This document shows, in pieces, positions 3,151-43,644 of a stretch of 64,000 nt of DNA. A model generated the notes under the pieces. It made no database searches and was not told the DNA's origin. It was given only the letters and a program-made list of their open reading frames with translations. How positions within the stretch are numbered: the first letter of the stretch is position 1; each line of letters begins with the position of its first letter. The DNA comes from an uncultured delta proteobacterium (GTDB lineage Bacteria > Myxococcota_A > Polyangia > Fen-1088): the NCBI GenBank assembly GCA_963782545.1, contig CAWAKD010000006.1, forward strand, positions 71,309 through 135,308. Direction: 5' to 3'. The translations under genes were made by a program, and so were the position numbers.

Positions 3151-3876
3151 CTAGTCGAGGCCGCCGGCGGCGGCCTGGGCCAGGGCGACGGCCACGATGG
3201 CGGCGGTTTCCGCGCGCAGGATGCGAGGACCCAGGGAAACCGGCACGAATCCGGCTTCGCTCGCGCCGTCCACTTCGGCGAGGGAGAACCCACCCTCGGG
3301 GCCGACCAGCAGGACGACTTCGCGAGGGCCGGCGGCGAGGGCGCCACGCAGGGCTTGGGTGCGCTCGCCCTCCCACAGCATGAGGCGCATTCTCGGCTGG
3401 TTCGCGAATCCTGCCAGGGCAGCGCCGAGGGAGAGACAATCGTCGATGTCGGGGACGTCGGCGCGGCCGCACTGCCGGGACGCCTCCGTGGCGATGGTCT
3501 GCCAGCGCTGGCGGCGTCCCCGCGCGGGCGGCTTGACCATGCCGTACTCGGTGATGACGGGTACGATGCGGGCCACGCCCAGTTCGGAGGTCTTCTGCAC
3601 GATGAAGTCCATGCGCTCGCCCCGCGGCAGCGACTGCAGCAGGGTGATGGCGCAGGCCGGGGGGGGCACCGGGTGGCGCCGTCCCAGGGCGATTTCGACC
3701 GAGGATTTCCCTACGGATAAGATGCGCGCCTCGATGACCGTGCCGACGCCATCGAAGACCTGGATGGCCGCCCCCGGCGCCAGGCGCAGCACCTTGATCA
3801 GGTGGCGGTGGGCGGCCTGGTCGATCGTGGCGCGCGAGCCTTGCAGTTTCTCCGGGGAAACATGAAGTCGCACCAT
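3151..3876 (-). CDS. rsmE: 16S rRNA (uracil1498-N3)-methyltransferase RsmE
   Basis: MVRLHVSPEKLQ...VLLVGPEGGFS...RILRAETAAI is the RsmE/PUA-SPOUT signature. Start moved to the ATG at 3876. Confidence 0.85.
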   Translation of the reverse strand: MVRLHVSPEKLQGSRATIDQAAHRHLIKVLRLAPGAAIQVFDGVGTVIEARILSVGKSSVEIALGRRHPVPPPACAITLLQSLPRGERMDFIVQKTSELGVARIVPVITEYGMVKPPARGRRQRWQTIATEASRQCGRADVPDIDDCLSLGAALAGFANQPRMRLMLWEGERTQALRGALAAGPREVVLLVGPEGGFSLAEVDGASEAGFVPVSLGPRILRAETAAIVAVALAQAAAGGLD

Positions 3877-27539: not shown

Positions 27540-28892
27540 TCAGATCTCTTTGCGGCGTAGACGCAAGAACACCAGGAACAAAGCAACGAGGGCGGTGCCG
27601 AACGGGCTTGCAGTGGGGGTGGTGCTGCAACTGCAGCCACCTTGGGCATTGGTCGTCCCTGCTGTGCCTTCGCTGGTCTCGCCGCCACTCGCGGTGGTAC
27701 CGCCGGTTGCCGCCATGCCGCCCGATCCAATCGATCCACCGGAAGCGGTTGTGTCACCGGAGCCGGTCATGCCACCCGTGCGCAAAGTACCACCCAAGCC
27801 GGTCGATCCACCGGATGCGCTCGTGTCGCCCGATCCTGCCGTGCCGCCGGAAGCGGTGGTGCCACCGGTGTTCGTCGTGCCGCCGGAAGCGCCACCGGTG
27901 CTCGGCGTCCCACCGGAAGCGGTGGTGCTGCCGGCATTCGTCGTACCGCCGGTGCTCGTTGTCCCGCCGGTGCTCGTTGTCCTGCCGGTGCTCGTTGTCC
28001 CGCCGGTGCTCGTTGTCCCCCCTGTGCTCGTCGTGCCGCCGGATCCGCCGGTAGTACCCCCGGCGCCGCCGGTGGAGGTGACCCCGCCCGTGCCCGGACC
28101 ACCGCCCGCGCCACCACTGCCGCCGGCAGCATTGTCGACAGGTGGTGTGCCGGGATTGCCCGTCGCATTGTCTGCGGTCAGCGACAACACGGCGATGCCG
28201 TTCACGAAGGCGACGTTTTGCGGGCTGTGGGTCGACAGGTTGAAGGGCGAGGCCCAGTTGCCGACCGCCCAACCGGACGGAATGCCCGACGACTGGAAAT
28301 CCTCGTGCCACTGCACGTTGAAATTGCCGTTGTCGTACGACGAGTATTCCACCCAGCTTATGTACTGGTGCACCGGCAGTGTCGTGTTGTTGATGTTTCC
28401 GCCGAAGCTGGAGTTGCCGGGCCAGATGTTGAAGTGGAAGGACATGCCGGCGGTCGCATTCTGGGCGTAGGCGGTGGCGTTGGCGCCGGTATCCCGGCGG
28501 ATCTCTTTGCCGTCGACCACCCACGCGATGTAGGTCGGCGTCCATTCGAACCGATAGTCGTGGTATCCCGTGCAAATGCTGGCCAGGGAAGGTGTCTGCT
28601 GGTGCTGGCTCTTCGGGTTCCCGTAGATGCTATTGATCTGCATGTGGCAATCGGCGCCGACCTTCTCGTAGTCCAGCTCGTTCCAATAGCCGTTGGCCGC
28701 GTCGGAGCCCTCTTTCCAAAGAAAGAACGAGCTGACCACGCCGTCACCCGGGGCGAACTGAATGCGTGCATCGAAACGCCCGTAGAAATAGGCCTTCGTA
28801 CTGTACAGCTCGGCGCTGGCCATGCCCATGGCCGAGGCAGGAACGAGAACGGTCGCAACAACAAGCGCGAGCAGAGCCGACCTTGAATTCAT
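27540..28892 (-). CDS. Glycoside hydrolase family 16 (beta-glucanase/laminarinase-like) with a Gly/Thr-rich stalk and a MYXO-CTERM sorting tail
   Basis: Signal peptide MNSRSALLALVVATVLVPASA. GH16 E-x-D-x-x-E region (NELDYEK). The C-terminus is ...GGCSCSTTPTASPFGTALVALFLVFLRLRRKEI, i.e. Cys + TM + basic tail. Confidence 0.8.
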   Translation of the reverse strand: MNSRSALLALVVATVLVPASAMGMASAELYSTKAYFYGRFDARIQFAPGDGVVSSFFLWKEGSDAANGYWNELDYEKVGADCHMQINSIYGNPKSQHQQTPSLASICTGYHDYRFEWTPTYIAWVVDGKEIRRDTGANATAYAQNATAGMSFHFNIWPGNSSFGGNINNTTLPVHQYISWVEYSSYDNGNFNVQWHEDFQSSGIPSGWAVGNWASPFNLSTHSPQNVAFVNGIAVLSLTADNATGNPGTPPVDNAAGGSGGAGGGPGTGGVTSTGGAGGTTGGSGGTTSTGGTTSTGGTTSTGRTTSTGGTTSTGGTTNAGSTTASGGTPSTGGASGGTTNTGGTTASGGTAGSGDTSASGGSTGLGGTLRTGGMTGSGDTTASGGSIGSGGMAATGGTTASGGETSEGTAGTTNAQGGCSCSTTPTASPFGTALVALFLVFLRLRRKEI

Positions 28893-39120: not shown

Positions 39121-39193
39121 TAGTAATATTGTGGAGCTGAACAGGATCGAACTGTCGGCCTCCTGAATGCCATTCAGGCGCTCTCCCAGCTGA
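39121..39193 (-). tRNA. tRNA-Ala (anticodon GGC)
   Basis: Reverse complement: GGGGCTGTAGCTCAGCTGGGAGAGCGCCTGAATGGCATTCAGGAGGCCGACAGTTCGATCCTGTTCAGCTCCA. G3:U70 identity pair. Anticodon loop AT-GGC-AT. T-loop TTCGATC. 73 nt, CCA not encoded. Confidence 0.9.
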
Positions 39194-39370
39194 GCTACAG
39201 CCCCATCGCCCCTTGCGAGGCACGGAGTAACTACCAGCCACGTGGCCAGACGTCAATACCGGAGTCGCGGCGTCACGGCACGGCTTGACAGGGCGGGGCA
39301 GGGTGGCAGATTGTCTCCTCCCTTTTCGCGGCGATCTTGCGCCGCGAGGGACGCAACATCAGGAGAATCC

Positions 39371-40471
39371 ATGGCAACGATCGATTTCGGTGGAGTCAAA
39401 GAGGAAGTCATCACCCGCGAGGAGTTCCCCATCAAGAAGGCCCTCGAGGTCTTGAAGAACGAGACCATCGCGGTGATCGGCTACGGCGTCCAAGGTCCGG
39501 CCCAGTCGCTCAACATGAAGGACAATGGCTTCAACGTCATCATCGGCCAGGCGTCGAAGTTCAAGAAGGATTGGGACCGCGCGGTTCGCGACGGCTGGGT
39601 GCCGGGTAAGACCCTGTTCGAGATCGAGGAAGCCGCCGAGAAGGGCACCATCATTCAGATGCTGGTGTCGGACGCCGCGCAGAAGGCGATCTGGCCTGAC
39701 ATCAAGAAGCACCTCAAGAAGGGCAAGGCCGTGTACTTCTCGCACGGCTTCTCCATCGTCTACAAGGATCAGACCGGCGTGGTTCCGCCACCGGACGTGG
39801 ACGTCATCATGGTCGCGCCCAAGGGCTCGGGCACCTCGGTGCGCCGCAATTTTCTGTCCGGCGCCGGGATCAATTCCAGCTTCGCCGTCGAGCAGGACGC
39901 CACCGGACGAGCCAAGGAGCGCACCATGGCGCTCGGCATCGCGGTCGGCTCGGGCTACCTGTTCCCCACCACCTTCCAGAAGGAGGTGTACAGCGACCTC
40001 ACCGGCGAGCGCGGCGTGCTCATGGGCGCGCTGGCCGGGATCATGGACGCGCAGTACGAGGTGTTGCGCCGAAACGGTCACAGCCCGAGCGAGGCGTTCA
40101 ACGAAACCGTCGAGGAGCTGACCGAAAGCCTCATCCGCCTGGTGGGTGAGAACGGCATGGACTGGATGTACTCGAACTGCTCGGCCACGGCCCAGCGGGG
40201 CGCCCTCGACTGGCGCCCGCGCTTCAAGCAGGCGGTGGCGCCCGTGTTCGAGCTGCTCTACGACCGCGTCGCGTCCGGCAAGGAGACCGCACGCGTGCTC
40301 GAGTCCACGGGCGGTCCCGATTACCAGCAGCGGCTCGGCAAGGAGCTGGCCGAGATGGGCAACTCCGAGATGTGGCTGGCCGGCAAGGCCACGCGCTCGC
40401 TGCGCCCGAAGGAGTTGGCGCGTACGATCTCCTCCGACACCAAGGGCATCGGCGGCCGTGGCGAGAACTAG
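39371..40471 (+). CDS. ilvC: Ketol-acid reductoisomerase
   Basis: MATIDFGGVKEEVIT...IAVIGYGVQGPAQSLNMKDNG... with RBS AGGAG. Start trimmed from the ORF's 39242. Confidence 0.9.
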   Translation: MATIDFGGVKEEVITREEFPIKKALEVLKNETIAVIGYGVQGPAQSLNMKDNGFNVIIGQASKFKKDWDRAVRDGWVPGKTLFEIEEAAEKGTIIQMLVSDAAQKAIWPDIKKHLKKGKAVYFSHGFSIVYKDQTGVVPPPDVDVIMVAPKGSGTSVRRNFLSGAGINSSFAVEQDATGRAKERTMALGIAVGSGYLFPTTFQKEVYSDLTGERGVLMGALAGIMDAQYEVLRRNGHSPSEAFNETVEELTESLIRLVGENGMDWMYSNCSATAQRGALDWRPRFKQAVAPVFELLYDRVASGKETARVLESTGGPDYQQRLGKELAEMGNSEMWLAGKATRSLRPKELARTISSDTKGIGGRGEN

Positions 40472-40495
40472 CCACAGCGCCCCTCACCCTGTCCC

Positions 40496-41904
40496 TCATA
40501 GGTGCTAACCACTTTTTTGCTAGTGATCTCGCGAAGGTGTACGGGGAGGTATGGGGACGAAACTTCTGGAGTGCGAATGGCCGATGTTGGTCCGGGAGCT
40601 TCCTGCCGGGTGGAAGGAGAGCGCGTTCTTAACGGGCGCAATTGTCATGGAGGACGGGCCACTGGCCGACCCGGAGAAGCTGCTACGGTTGCTGTTGGGT
40701 AGGGCAGCATCTGACGGATCCCTACGCTCCGTGGTCGCGCACGCTCGGGCAACCGGGTTGTGCGACGTGAGCAACGTAGCCCTGCACAAGCGGGAGAAGC
40801 GATGTGCGGACTGGCTGGAATGGATCGCGGACGACATGCTGGCGGAAACCATGGCTGGGCTGCCGTCAAGTCCCTTGCGCATGCGTCTGGTAGACGCGAC
40901 TTGCGCGAGCCGGCCTGGCAGCACGATGGCCGATTTTCGCCTGCACGTGACTGTGGAGTTGCCTACCCGGCGATTCACCCGAGCGGAGTTGACCGACAAC
41001 CATGGCGGGGAGTCGTTCGAGCGAATGGCGGTTGAGCCAGGTGATCTCTTGGTGGGTGACCGCATCTATGGGACGGCGAATTCGATCGAGCACGTGACGG
41101 CGAGAGGTGGCTACGCCCTGGTGCGCATCAATGCTTCGTCGCTGCCAATGTGGAGTACCTCCGACGGGGCGCGGGTCGACCCACTGGTCGTGGCCAGAAG
41201 GCTCGCCCCTGGCGAGATGACGGAGATCCCCGTCGAGATCCGGCCGAAGTCTGGTCAGGCGATCGAGGGAAGATTTTGTATCTATGCCTTGCCCACCGAG
41301 CAGGCAGCCAAGGCCCAGAAGCGGACGCGCCGGACCAAGTTGAAGCGCGGCAAGCGACCGGGCAAGTGTTCCATCGAGAGCGCCAAGTACATCATGTTGT
41401 TTACGACCGTGCCCTGCAAGATGATGACGACCGCACAAGTGGTCGCGACCTATCGGCTGCGTTGGCAAGTCGAGCTTGCGTTCAAGACGCTCAAGACTGT
41501 GCTCAAGTTCGACGAGTTGCCCAATCGCCTGCCGGACACGGGCCGTACCTGGCTGCTCGCTAAGCTGATCTGCGCGCTTCTGCTGCAACGGTTGGCCGGC
41601 TGCCACGAGGCTATTCCCCCCTCGGACGTCGCAGCCGCTGCCTAGCCCATCATCCCGGCCAAGCCGGCTTTCTCCATTTCGCGCCATTGCGTTTCTGTCC
41701 TGTGCTCTGGCCGATGCCATTCTCGGTCGACTCACGCTGACGGCACGAGTTGCAGCCCTTGACCGCACATCTGAGTTTCGCGACGGCCGCCAGCAGTACC
41801 AAATCGACAAATTCGTCGTCCGACCTCGACACCGTCTTGCTCAACGCCTCGGCCTAGTCACGAAAGCTACCTCATGCAGGGCTCCGAGTGGTTAGCACCT
41901 ATGA
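40496..41904 (+). mobile_element. IS element copy A (1409 bp, DDE_Tnp_1 / IS4-like)
   Basis: 18-bp terminal IRs TCATAGGTGCTAACCACT (40496..40513 and 41887..41904). Flanked by a 9-bp direct repeat CCCTGTCCC (40487..40495 / 41905..41913). Confidence 0.8.
40551..41645 (+). CDS. IS4-like DDE transposase (364 aa)
   Basis: Y-(2)-R-(3)-E-(6)-K signature in YRLRWQVELAFKTLK. Identical to the copy at 42324..43418. Confidence 0.85.
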   Translation: MGTKLLECEWPMLVRELPAGWKESAFLTGAIVMEDGPLADPEKLLRLLLGRAASDGSLRSVVAHARATGLCDVSNVALHKREKRCADWLEWIADDMLAETMAGLPSSPLRMRLVDATCASRPGSTMADFRLHVTVELPTRRFTRAELTDNHGGESFERMAVEPGDLLVGDRIYGTANSIEHVTARGGYALVRINASSLPMWSTSDGARVDPLVVARRLAPGEMTEIPVEIRPKSGQAIEGRFCIYALPTEQAAKAQKRTRRTKLKRGKRPGKCSIESAKYIMLFTTVPCKMMTTAQVVATYRLRWQVELAFKTLKTVLKFDELPNRLPDTGRTWLLAKLICALLLQRLAGCHEAIPPSDVAAAA

Positions 41905-42064
41905 CCCTGTCCCTTACCCTGTCCCTCTCCCCGGCTGTCGCCGGGGCGAGGGGACCTGGCTGCTGGATCTCTGCGCAGGCAAGTGATCTCTCGACTCGTC
42001 CGAACCGCCCCCTCGCCCCGCGTAGCGCAGCGAAGCGGGGAGAGGGTTGGGGTCAGGGTTGGGG
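41905..42064. repeat. 160-bp remnant of an imperfect palindromic intergenic element between the two IS copies
   Basis: Arms ccctgtcccttaccctgtccctctcccc ... ggggagagggttggggtcagggttgggg are inverse-complementary with a few mismatches. The overlapping 67-aa ORFs on both strands are palindrome artefacts. Confidence 0.5.
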
Positions 42065-43473
42065 TCATAGGTGCTAACCACTCGGAGCCCTGCATGAGGT
42101 AGCTTTCGTGACTAGGCCGAGGCGTTGAGCAAGACGGTGTCGAGGTCGGACGACGAATTTGTCGATCTGGTACTGCTGGCGGCCGTCGCGAAACTCAGAT
42201 GTGCGGTCAAGGGCTGCAACTCGTGCCGTCAGCGTGAGTCGACCGAGAATGGCATCGGCCAGAGCACAGGACAGAAACGCAATGGCGCGAAATGGAGAAA
42301 GCCGGCTTGGCCGGGATGATGGGCTAGGCAGCGGCTGCGACGTCCGAGGGGGGAATAGCCTCGTGGCAGCCGGCCAACCGTTGCAGCAGAAGCGCGCAGA
42401 TCAGCTTAGCGAGCAGCCAGGTACGGCCCGTGTCCGGCAGGCGATTGGGCAACTCGTCGAACTTGAGCACAGTCTTGAGCGTCTTGAACGCAAGCTCGAC
42501 TTGCCAACGCAGCCGATAGGTCGCGACCACTTGTGCGGTCGTCATCATCTTGCAGGGCACGGTCGTAAACAACATGATGTACTTGGCGCTCTCGATGGAA
42601 CACTTGCCCGGTCGCTTGCCGCGCTTCAACTTGGTCCGGCGCGTCCGCTTCTGGGCCTTGGCTGCCTGCTCGGTGGGCAAGGCATAGATACAAAATCTTC
42701 CCTCGATCGCCTGACCAGACTTCGGCCGGATCTCGACGGGGATCTCCGTCATCTCGCCAGGGGCGAGCCTTCTGGCCACGACCAGTGGGTCGACCCGCGC
42801 CCCGTCGGAGGTACTCCACATTGGCAGCGACGAAGCATTGATGCGCACCAGGGCGTAGCCACCTCTCGCCGTCACGTGCTCGATCGAATTCGCCGTCCCA
42901 TAGATGCGGTCACCCACCAAGAGATCACCTGGCTCAACCGCCATTCGCTCGAACGACTCCCCGCCATGGTTGTCGGTCAACTCCGCTCGGGTGAATCGCC
43001 GGGTAGGCAACTCCACAGTCACGTGCAGGCGAAAATCGGCCATCGTGCTGCCAGGCCGGCTCGCGCAAGTCGCGTCTACCAGACGCATGCGCAAGGGACT
43101 TGACGGCAGCCCAGCCATGGTTTCCGCCAGCATGTCGTCCGCGATCCATTCCAGCCAGTCCGCACATCGCTTCTCCCGCTTGTGCAGGGCTACGTTGCTC
43201 ACGTCGCACAACCCGGTTGCCCGAGCGTGCGCGACCACGGAGCGTAGGGATCCGTCAGATGCTGCCCTACCCAACAGCAACCGTAGCAGCTTCTCCGGGT
43301 CGGCCAGTGGCCCGTCCTCCATGACAATTGCGCCCGTTAAGAACGCGCTCTCCTTCCACCCGGCAGGAAGCTCCCGGACCAACATCGGCCATTCGCACTC
43401 CAGAAGTTTCGTCCCCATACCTCCCCGTACACCTTCGCGAGATCACTAGCAAAAAAGTGGTTAGCACCTATGA
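42065..43473 (-). mobile_element. IS element copy B (1409 bp, inverted relative to copy A)
   Basis: The same 18-bp IRs (42065..42082 and 43456..43473). Own 9-bp direct repeat GGGTTGGGG (42056..42064 / 43474..43482). Confidence 0.8.
42324..43418 (-). CDS. IS4-like DDE transposase (364 aa), second copy
   Basis: Translation identical to 40551..41645. Confidence 0.85.
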   Translation of the reverse strand: MGTKLLECEWPMLVRELPAGWKESAFLTGAIVMEDGPLADPEKLLRLLLGRAASDGSLRSVVAHARATGLCDVSNVALHKREKRCADWLEWIADDMLAETMAGLPSSPLRMRLVDATCASRPGSTMADFRLHVTVELPTRRFTRAELTDNHGGESFERMAVEPGDLLVGDRIYGTANSIEHVTARGGYALVRINASSLPMWSTSDGARVDPLVVARRLAPGEMTEIPVEIRPKSGQAIEGRFCIYALPTEQAAKAQKRTRRTKLKRGKRPGKCSIESAKYIMLFTTVPCKMMTTAQVVATYRLRWQVELAFKTLKTVLKFDELPNRLPDTGRTWLLAKLICALLLQRLAGCHEAIPPSDVAAAA

Positions 43474-43644
43474 GGGTTGGGGTGAGGGGCGATCCTGTGG
43501 ACCTCTCCAAGCCGCCCTCTTACCGCTGGAAGCCGCCGGTGTAGGTCGCACACTTGGCTTTCTGGGTAAGGACGAGCCCCGATGGGGAGAGGCTTGAAGT
43601 GGCCAGGCGTCGCTCTCAGCGCGCTCTGTGGTTAAACTGCGCTG

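Follow-up and report, generated by a model that had tools for sequence, protein, structure and literature searches.

Two inverted copies of an IS4-family insertion sequence at equivalent sites of a REP-like doublet in an uncultured Polyangia genome

Insertion sequences (ISs) that target repetitive extragenic palindromes (REPs) have been reported in five IS families (PMC1525189). Within the IS4 family, 10 of 10 copies of ISRm22 in Sinorhizobium meliloti lie inside REPs (Tobes & Pareja 2006, PMC1525189), and the insertion specificity of the IS4 subgroup and of ISRm22 has been called 'spectacular' (De Palmenaer 2008, PMC2266710). Table 1 of PMC2577343, citing Hallet et al. 1994, gives the target of IS231A as GGGNNNNNCCC (GGGN5CCC) with an 11-bp target-site duplication (TSD), and the target of IS186 is GGGG(N6/7)CCCC (PMC5009759). 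Here we analyse 64,000 nucleotides of DNA from an uncultured Polyangia bacterium (assembly GCA_963782545.1, contig CAWAKD010000006.1, positions 71,309 to 135,308; this whole stretch is referred to as the window), in which two inverted copies of a 1407-bp IS interrupt a palindrome between ilvC and a Suv3-like helicase gene. We consider it very probable that this IS4-family element, from the lineage of IS231, IS186 and IS421, inserted here twice independently, once into each of the two inverted REP-like units of a lineage-specific palindrome. The initial annotation of this DNA took REP targeting to be unknown in the DDE_Tnp_1/IS4 group, which is refuted by ISRm22 as described in 2006 (PMC1525189); the site-selective IS231A and IS186 are also known, and with these precedents the claim of novelty fails.

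The window contains an inverted repeat of 1456 nt (40478-41933 / 42036-43491) with 99% complementarity. Copies A and B of the IS are identical at 1406 of 1407 positions, the sole difference being position 41802, 3' of the transposase stop codon, where copy A has A and copy B has G. The 17-bp terminal inverted repeat (IR) of the element occurs four times in the 64-kb window, against 0.02 occurrences expected by chance. The copies are arranged tail to tail, such that their transposase-distal ends face each other across 162 bp. The arrangement of two inverted copies is as first described. Their 364-aa transposases are identical, as noted there, and the 1409-bp units originally delimited, given as about 100% identical, agree at 1408 of 1409 positions; the spacer of the perfect inverted repeat is short, as claimed, but measures 162 bp rather than 160 bp once the IS ends are corrected. 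The features of the locus, in window coordinates, are as follows.

40472..40485 (+): outer left end of the palindrome, CCACAGCGCCCCTC, including the REP 'head' GCCCCTC
40486..40496 (+): left TSD of copy A, ACCCTGTCCCT, its 11-bp length validated on related contigs
40497..41903 (+): IS copy A, 1407 bp, with 17-bp IRs CATAGGTGCTAACCACT at 40497-40513 and 41887-41903
40551..41645 (+): transposase gene of copy A, 364 aa, with DDE residues D115/D170/E308, YREK residues Y301/R304/E308/K315 and a predicted Tn5-like fold
41904..41914 (+): right TSD of copy A, ACCCTGTCCCT
41915..41926 (+): extra arm-A 11-mer after a 1-nt spacer (T + ACCCTGTCCCT), footprint-like, overlapping the start of hairpin 1
41923..41955 (+): REP hairpin 1, CCCTCTCCCCGGC-TGTC-GCCGGGGCGAGGG
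41956..42007 (no strand): non-repeated centre of the palindromic doublet, 52 bp
42008..42046 (-): REP hairpin 2, in inverted orientation, CCCTCGCCCCGC-loop-GCGGGGAGAGGG
42043..42054 (-): extra arm-B 11-mer AGGGTTGGGGT plus a 1-nt spacer (C at 42054 on the + strand), mirror of 41915-41926
42055..42065 (-): inner TSD of copy B, AGGGTTGGGGT (ACCCCAACCCT in IS orientation)
42066..43472 (-): IS copy B, 1407 bp, inverted relative to copy A
42324..43418 (-): transposase gene of copy B, the same 364 aa
43473..43483 (-): outer TSD of copy B, AGGGTTGGGGT
43484..43500 (-): outer right end of the palindrome, GAGGGGCGATCCTGTGG

The ends of the element were defined by comparison with two sets of related copies. 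The first comprised contigs encoding the homologous transposases P0001 (98% identity), P0003 (81%), P0006, P0007, P0018 and P0028 (61%), and the second came from an IR pattern scan of metagenome contigs, which yielded 14 loci, many of them short or chimeric. By this comparison the termini read CATAGG...CCTATG, and CATAGGTGCTAACCACT is kept even between elements whose transposases are just 61% identical. The base outside CATAGG varies among related copies (any of the four on the right, and T, C or G on the left), and on single-insertion contigs the two flanks match over exactly 11 bp. In one of these copies (L034) the neighbouring bases are C on the left and A on the right, which shows that the outside bases belong to the target and not to the IS. 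Because the outside base varies and the flanks match over 11 bp, the IS is 1407 bp long, with a 17-bp IR and an 11-bp TSD. These values replace the 1409 bp, 18 bp and 9 bp of the initial annotation, and the 9-bp repeats noted there are the cores of the 11-mers ACCCTGTCCCT and AGGGTTGGGGT. The 11-bp TSDs of related copies are listed here.

L033: AGGGCTAGGGT
L034, L055 and L056: AGGGTTAGGGC
L032: GGGGGGAGTGG
L029 and L030: AGGGGGATAGT
L058, a 64%-identical relative with a slightly different IR: CCACGACGGGC

Among the same IS ends (L001-L035), elements with transposases only 61% identical agree in all of the first 24 nt of the left end, CATAGGTGCTAACCACTTTTTTGC, although their interiors no longer align by megablast. 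Constraint on the end sequence is much stronger than on the remainder of the element. Other copies were of less use: for P0007 (68% identity) the IR has diverged and the two flanks mismatch, and P0075 (39% identity), from a more distant clade and an 8.8-Mb genome, has an IS186-like end CATAAGCGTTAACTTAAGGGG and one insertion site, and is uninformative on targets. An IR scan of GTDB representative genomes found no copy of an IS with this IR. Two GTDB matches to the IR, in metagenome-assembled genomes of Scytonema and Algibacter, have AT-rich flanks and no IS, and were judged to be chance matches, of which around 9 were expected. In the collections searched, close relatives of the IS are known from short metagenome contigs alone.

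With the ends in place, each IS copy in the window is seen to have its own perfect TSD, which indicates two separate insertions. The three 11-mers of arm A all read TGT, while the three of arm B all read CAA in the equivalent orientation, and both TSDs of each copy agree perfectly. Two independent insertions into the equivalent site of each unit are thus the most parsimonious account of the locus, and the two independent transpositions originally proposed are borne out. That a single nucleotide separates copies A and B is compatible either with insertion in the recent past or with conversion that still goes on between the two. Relative to the C-rich strand, copies A and B share one polarity. 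As the units themselves are inverted, this shared polarity is enough to give the mirror geometry and the inverted IS pair, and no special mechanism is needed.

The host element was reconstructed in silico by removing each IS and one TSD from 40472-43500. The resulting 193 nt fold into one long hairpin (-69.3 kcal/mol, z = -8.4), and none of 200 shuffled sequences folded as well, which bears out the earlier description of the IS-free remainder as an imperfect palindrome. The element is made up of two REP-like units, inverted relative to each other and both built as GCCCCTC-[A CCC NNN CCC T]-...-CTCCCCGC-loop-GCGGGGCGAGGG; the general form of the unit is GCCCCTC-[N CCC NNN CCC N]-CTCCCCGC-loop-GCGGGGNGAGGG. 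The two units form separate stem-loops (41923-41955 and 42008-42046) on either side of the 52-bp centre. The architecture is that of a REP doublet (REPIN-like), namely a GC-rich, imperfect and extragenic palindrome in which an inverted doublet forms a long hairpin. No second such doublet was found elsewhere in the 64-kb window. Similar units do occur on unrelated metagenome contigs, beside related IS copies, which marks the units as a repeat family without implying any copy number in this genome. REP families usually run to tens or hundreds of copies in a genome and are accompanied by a RAYT (Y1 transposase). Close relatives of the host, with IlvC proteins 94-95% identical and the same ilvC-helicase synteny, have an unrelated spacer of 137-144 bp between the two genes that contains neither REP nor IS. 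The doublet and both IS copies are therefore lineage-specific additions, and none of these relatives carries a true pre-insertion (empty-site) allele.

Target preference was assessed using unique 20-nt junction flanks from the window and the related metagenome contigs. The motif N-(CCC or GGG)-NNN-(same triplet)-N lies exactly at the IS end in 32 of 50 unique flanks, compared with a background of 0.12% of positions in the rest of the window and also in five long related contigs, an enrichment of approximately 500-fold (binomial p ~2e-80). REP halves were sought in register, as ...CCTCNCCC-NNN-CCCN/IS on one side (the slash marks the junction) and as the reverse complement of IS/NCCC-NNN-CCC-N-CTCCCC... 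on the other. They are present in 27 of 51 unique flanks but at only 3 of 121,160 background positions in the window, an enrichment of more than 10,000-fold. The reconstructed consensus site is GCCCCTC[N CCC YNN CCC Y]CTCCCCGC-loop-GCGGGGAGAGGG, and the duplicated 11-mer overlaps the first four bases of the stem. Unoccupied, intact units with a single 11-mer are found near related IS copies (L010, L013, L015 and L031), and perfect 11-bp TSDs lie within REP units at L033, L034, L055 and L056. Both window copies fit the 'type 1 association' of Tobes and Pareja for REP-recognizer ISs; across the metagenome contigs, 27 of 51 unique flanks are in-register REP halves, but non-REP sites with perfect TSDs occur as well (L029/L030). 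In many metagenomes, related IS copies occupy this same register of such a unit, and these comparisons support targeting of the REP-like palindrome, as the initial annotation had suspected.

A number of observations weigh against this interpretation. The evidence from the organism's own genome consists of the two copies in the 64-kb window. Most junctions come from short metagenome contigs, many of which are chimeric, with mismatched left and right flanks, and some flanks probably represent one insertion sampled repeatedly, so that the 50 are not fully independent. About a third of the flanks do not show the strict motif, and perfect TSDs are also found at the non-REP sites AGGGGGATAGT (L029/L030) and CCACGACGGGC (L058, the 64%-identical relative). 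Moreover, the motif is non-palindromic, unlike those of IS231A and IS186, so a symmetric dimer reading bases gives no simple explanation of it, and the family shows no fixed orientation of the IS with respect to the C-rich strand. The preference therefore looks like one for a motif of sequence or shape, of which REP units are a plentiful source, and not like a strict requirement for REPs.

Across the family, C-type and G-type flanks are balanced, at 10:9 for left ends and 8:8 for right ends. When subfamilies are compared, the ratios are 8:2 (L001-L009, L024) and 1:9 (L028-L035, L055, L056), with a Fisher p of 0.005 calculated on flanks that are non-independent. The transposases of these two subfamilies are 81% identical, and the ratios hint at opposite orientation biases. 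At L002, L004 and L006, the 98%-identical IS has a C-type REP head next to each of its ends (GCCCCTCTCCCTCGCCCT/ and GCCCCTCTCCCTAGCCCT/), meaning that the flanks are inverted repeats and not a TSD. This could result from recombination between inverted copies, which would be possible also at the window locus, or from chimeric assembly.

By homology to Tn5, Tn10 and IS231A, the DDE/YREK transposase would act by Tn5/Tn10-type cut-and-paste. Its two 3'-OH ends would attack the target 11 bp apart, about one helical turn, giving rise to the 11-bp TSD. Target capture strongly favours an 11-bp site with G/C homopolymer triplets at positions 2-4 and 8-10 (N-CCC-NNN-CCC-N or the complement), a motif that in these genomes comes mostly from REP-like units, with insertion at the 5' base of the hairpin stem. 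The transpososome probably reads duplex sequence or shape, rather than an extruded hairpin, and the non-palindromic nature of the motif suggests a readout of G/C-tract geometry and not of bases on a defined strand.

We find it unlikely that the transposase instead recognises DNA structure, be it single-stranded DNA at the fork or a REP hairpin or cruciform that has been extruded, with the G/C-triplet motif as a passenger feature. Insertion invariably occurs at the foot of the REP stem, the palindrome that hosts the copies is highly stable, a non-palindromic motif is odd for a symmetric reading of duplex DNA, and IS1397 and IS621 have been discussed as recognising REP features (PMC1525189). Yet perfect 11-bp TSDs also occur at G-tract sites with no recognisable REP (L029/L030, AGGGGGATAGT), and both flanks of L012 carry the motif while being non-REP. 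The site at L032, GGGGGGAGTGG, is likewise G-rich, but here a REP-head-like GGGTGAGGG lies just downstream. In addition, the relatives IS231A and IS186 choose duplex motifs bounded by G/C tracts (PMC2577343, PMC5009759), and the Tn5-like fold is that of enzymes that capture duplex targets.

It is very improbable that the locus is an assembly artefact, in which one IS copy or a foldback chimera was mis-assembled as an inverted pair. Mis-assembly typically yields inverted repeats such as this one, 1.4 kb long and separated by a short spacer; the structure has been judged from the contig sequence, and the exact transposase and contig positions are not on record in the searched collections. Against this, copies A and B differ at one base, and the arms differ (TGT versus CAA, a 3-nt bulge, and the hairpin loops) while each TSD pair agrees perfectly. 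A foldback would produce identical arms and a collapse would produce mismatched flanks, and neither fits, so the single-nucleotide difference and the consistent, arm-specific TSDs argue against both kinds of artefact. For users of the contig, the same inverted repeat is nonetheless a classic mis-assembly hazard.

We give even less credence to the idea that the IS has no insertion preference, landing at random and persisting only where insertion into intergenic REP clusters is neutral. REP units lie outside genes and can be presumed to take up insertions at no cost, and metagenome data report surviving copies only. Selection could not, however, produce a single-nucleotide register, nor the same unit position and the same 11-bp segment in many units for IS subfamilies that are 61-81% identical, nor the enrichments given above. 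With a register this exact across units and across subfamilies 61-98% identical, survival bias alone is insufficient. Least credible of all is a single insertion followed by inverted duplication of arm and IS, or by gene conversion between arms, which would fit the near-identical copies and palindromic layout, but would require one and the same set of three substitutions to have arisen afterwards on three parallel occasions, and the loops and stems of the two hairpin units differ.

Once the IS and TSD are removed, each arm still carries the 11-mer twice, with 1 nt between: arm A reads ACCCTGTCCCT-T-ACCCTGTCCCT and arm B, in IS orientation, ACCCCAACCCT-G-ACCCCAACCCT. The intact units elsewhere (L010, L013, L015, L031) have the 11-mer once. 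A 12-nt slippage event predicts a C spacer in both arms, whereas T and G are found, these being the only deviations, and an excision footprint is favoured over slippage for this reason. The two instances weakly suggest that the extra 11-mer is a footprint of the form TSD + 1 nt + TSD, left by an earlier insertion in each arm. An origin of the 1-nt spacers as P-nucleotides or IS-terminal bases was rejected, as it fits only one of the two arms. A related layout is seen at L013 (~617-650) and L025 (IS left end at 55, - strand), which read ...CCGCTTAAYGCCTATG-GGGGTTGGGGG-CATAGGTGC..., with exactly 11 bp between an IS-like right end (…GCCTATG) and the IS left end downstream of it. A single 11-mer target seems to be shared here by two elements, or by one element and a remnant, and this fits repeated use of one site. 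Since the preferred motif is contained in the TSD, an insertion makes a second copy of the target that it used. A more far-reaching reading, to which we give a low probability, is that REP units are self-renewing hot spots, in which insertion copies the target and footprints record earlier visits, and that a non-palindromic motif is read with a subfamily-specific orientation bias, amounting to asymmetric target capture. To our knowledge, asymmetric target capture is undescribed for the IS4 family.

The matching TSD pairs show that the spacer between the copies is currently not in a singly (odd-numbered) inverted state. The 1.4-kb inverted repeat with its 162-bp spacer is a potential substrate for recombination or inversion and for hairpin processing, possibly including SbcCD-type cleavage. 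A composite transposon was considered and rejected: the pair encloses just 162 bp of non-coding REP sequence, with no cargo gene, and the outer flanks (ACCCTGTCCCT and AGGGTTGGGGT) give no outer TSD common to the pair. Similarity between the palindrome centre (41979-41994) and the IS interior (40519-40534), at 14 of 16 positions, was dismissed as being at chance level, with many like pairs present.

The IS4 family is characterised by a DDE triad and the signature Y-(2)-R-(3)-E-(6)-K, encoded in a single open reading frame (ORF) without frameshift (PMC2266710); for the ends, the features considered were short terminal IRs with 5'-CA at the tip and a TSD close to one helical turn in length (8-13 bp). 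The transposase described here is one uninterrupted 364-aa ORF with no frameshift. It matches Pfam DDE_Tnp_1 (PF01609, E = 3.4e-13) and NCBIfam NF033592 transpos_IS4_1 (123.9 bits, against a cut-off of 115), and both the triad D115, D170, E308 and the signature Y301-(2)-R304-(3)-E308-(6)-K315 are invariant across 68 homologues and IS421. The IR starts 5'-CA, and the TSD is 11 bp in the window and at L032, L033, L034, L055, L056 and L058. A sequence-only search of the PDB with the transposase gave no matches. Using an AlphaFold2 model (pLDDT 81.3), the top five PDB structure matches were all Tn5 transposase (E = 4e-10 to 3e-9, probability 1.0). The element is a member of the IS4 family. Its nearest named relatives in plasmid and Escherichia coli collections are copies of IS421, at ~34% identity over at least 80% of the protein (tblastn). 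The IS421 IR, CATAAGCGCTAACTTAAGGGTTG, resembles that of the window IS, CATAGGTGCTAACCACTTTTTTG (starting CATAAGCGCTAAC and CATAGGTGCTAAC, respectively), and the IS421 copy that we examined has a 10-bp TSD, GGATATCCCC. We take IS186 and IS421 to be placed in the IS231 subgroup in ISfinder. According to Table 1 of PMC2266710, the IS231 subgroup has CAT ends, direct repeats (DRs) of 10-12 bp and a size of at least 1.45 kb, and the ISH8 subgroup has the same CAT end with a 10-bp DR. The CAT ends and 11-bp DR of our element fit the IS231 ranges, its 1407 bp being slightly below the listed size, and we assign it provisionally to that subgroup.

Comparison with the described systems places the element among several partial likenesses. 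IS231A from Bacillus thuringiensis, in the IS231 subgroup, shares a single-ORF DDE/YREK transposase, CAT ends, an 11-bp TSD and cut-and-paste transposition, as well as a target in which G/C triplets border the segment that is duplicated (GGGNNNNNCCC; PMC2577343 Table 1, PMC2266710 Table 1). Its triplets are, however, palindromic (GGG...CCC, at positions 1-3 and 9-11), whereas those of the window IS are on the same strand (CCC...CCC or GGG...GGG, at positions 2-4 and 8-10), so the palindromic G/C-tract target of the IS231 type is not found here; its host belongs to the Firmicutes and ours to the Myxococcota. IS186/IS421 of E. coli has a homologous IR, a TSD of ~10-11 bp and a specific target bounded by G/C tracts (PMC5009759), but differs in having a palindromic non-REP target, which is used in either orientation at the same site, and in being distant in sequence. 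ISRm22, also of the IS4 family, has its copies inside REPs, usually within REP clusters (PMC1525189; PMC2266710). It has 6-bp DRs at the axis of the REP palindrome, while the window IS has an 11-bp TSD next to the hairpin, where a C-rich hexamer run lies 5' of the stem, and the two belong to different subgroups, ISRm22 to IS4Sa with CA- ends as opposed to CAT- ends. Finally, IS1397/ISKpn1 (IS3) and IS621, ISPa11 and ISPpu9/10 (IS110) also use a fixed REP position, with REP halves flanking the IS (PMC1525189), but their transposases are unrelated (copy-out-paste-in enzymes and DEDD recombinases) and their TSDs are very short or absent. The details that are distinct here are the 11-bp TSD, the site beside the stem instead of at its axis, the CCC-N3-CCC motif, and the different host phylum.

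The genes on either side of the palindrome are those named in the initial annotation.

39371..40471 (+): ilvC (ketol-acid reductoisomerase), upstream neighbour, with its stop codon directly before the palindrome; an ORF 100% identical to P0121
43645..45915 (+): Suv3-like helicase gene, downstream neighbour; an ORF whose orthologues in L037-L048 carry DEXQc_Suv3 and Helicase_C

Homologues of IlvC carry the Pfam domains KARI_N and KARI_C, and those at 90-92% identity bear the name of uncultured Polyangia (Myxococcota), in agreement with the host lineage. A scan of the region for promoters and terminators found no sites, and a search of the region against Rfam gave no match above threshold and one sub-threshold chance match. 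A tRNA-Ala(GGC) gene lies just upstream of ilvC, at 39131-39204 (-). In L040-L042, a 214-aa Phage_integrase-family gene is found directly upstream of ilvC (3162-3806; in L042, 2525-3169), and it is not present in L037-L039; this presence/absence pattern suggests a variable integrated element at the locus. Elsewhere in the window, positions 27718-28053 contain degenerate tandem repeats with an 18-nt period, of the CCGCCGGTGCTCGTTGTC type, which probably constitute a proline/valine-rich coding repeat on one strand. On the metagenome contigs, relatives of the IS are often found beside unrelated transposase genes (DUF772/DDE_Tnp_1), as at L010 (1131-2528), L049 (1-845 and 2903-4134), L052 (2192-3138) and L057 (1769-2988). 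Such clusters are IS nests, and are consistent with REP clusters serving as shared landing pads.

Overall, the locus is a clear but essentially ordinary instance of a known behaviour, in a neat configuration, and it opens no new class of mechanism. It does provide a clean natural example, from the poorly studied uncultured Polyangia, of REP-like repeats serving an IS4-family element as safe places to land, and it indicates that the IS231/IS186-style rule, by which G/C tracts bound the duplicated turn of DNA, can be non-palindromic.

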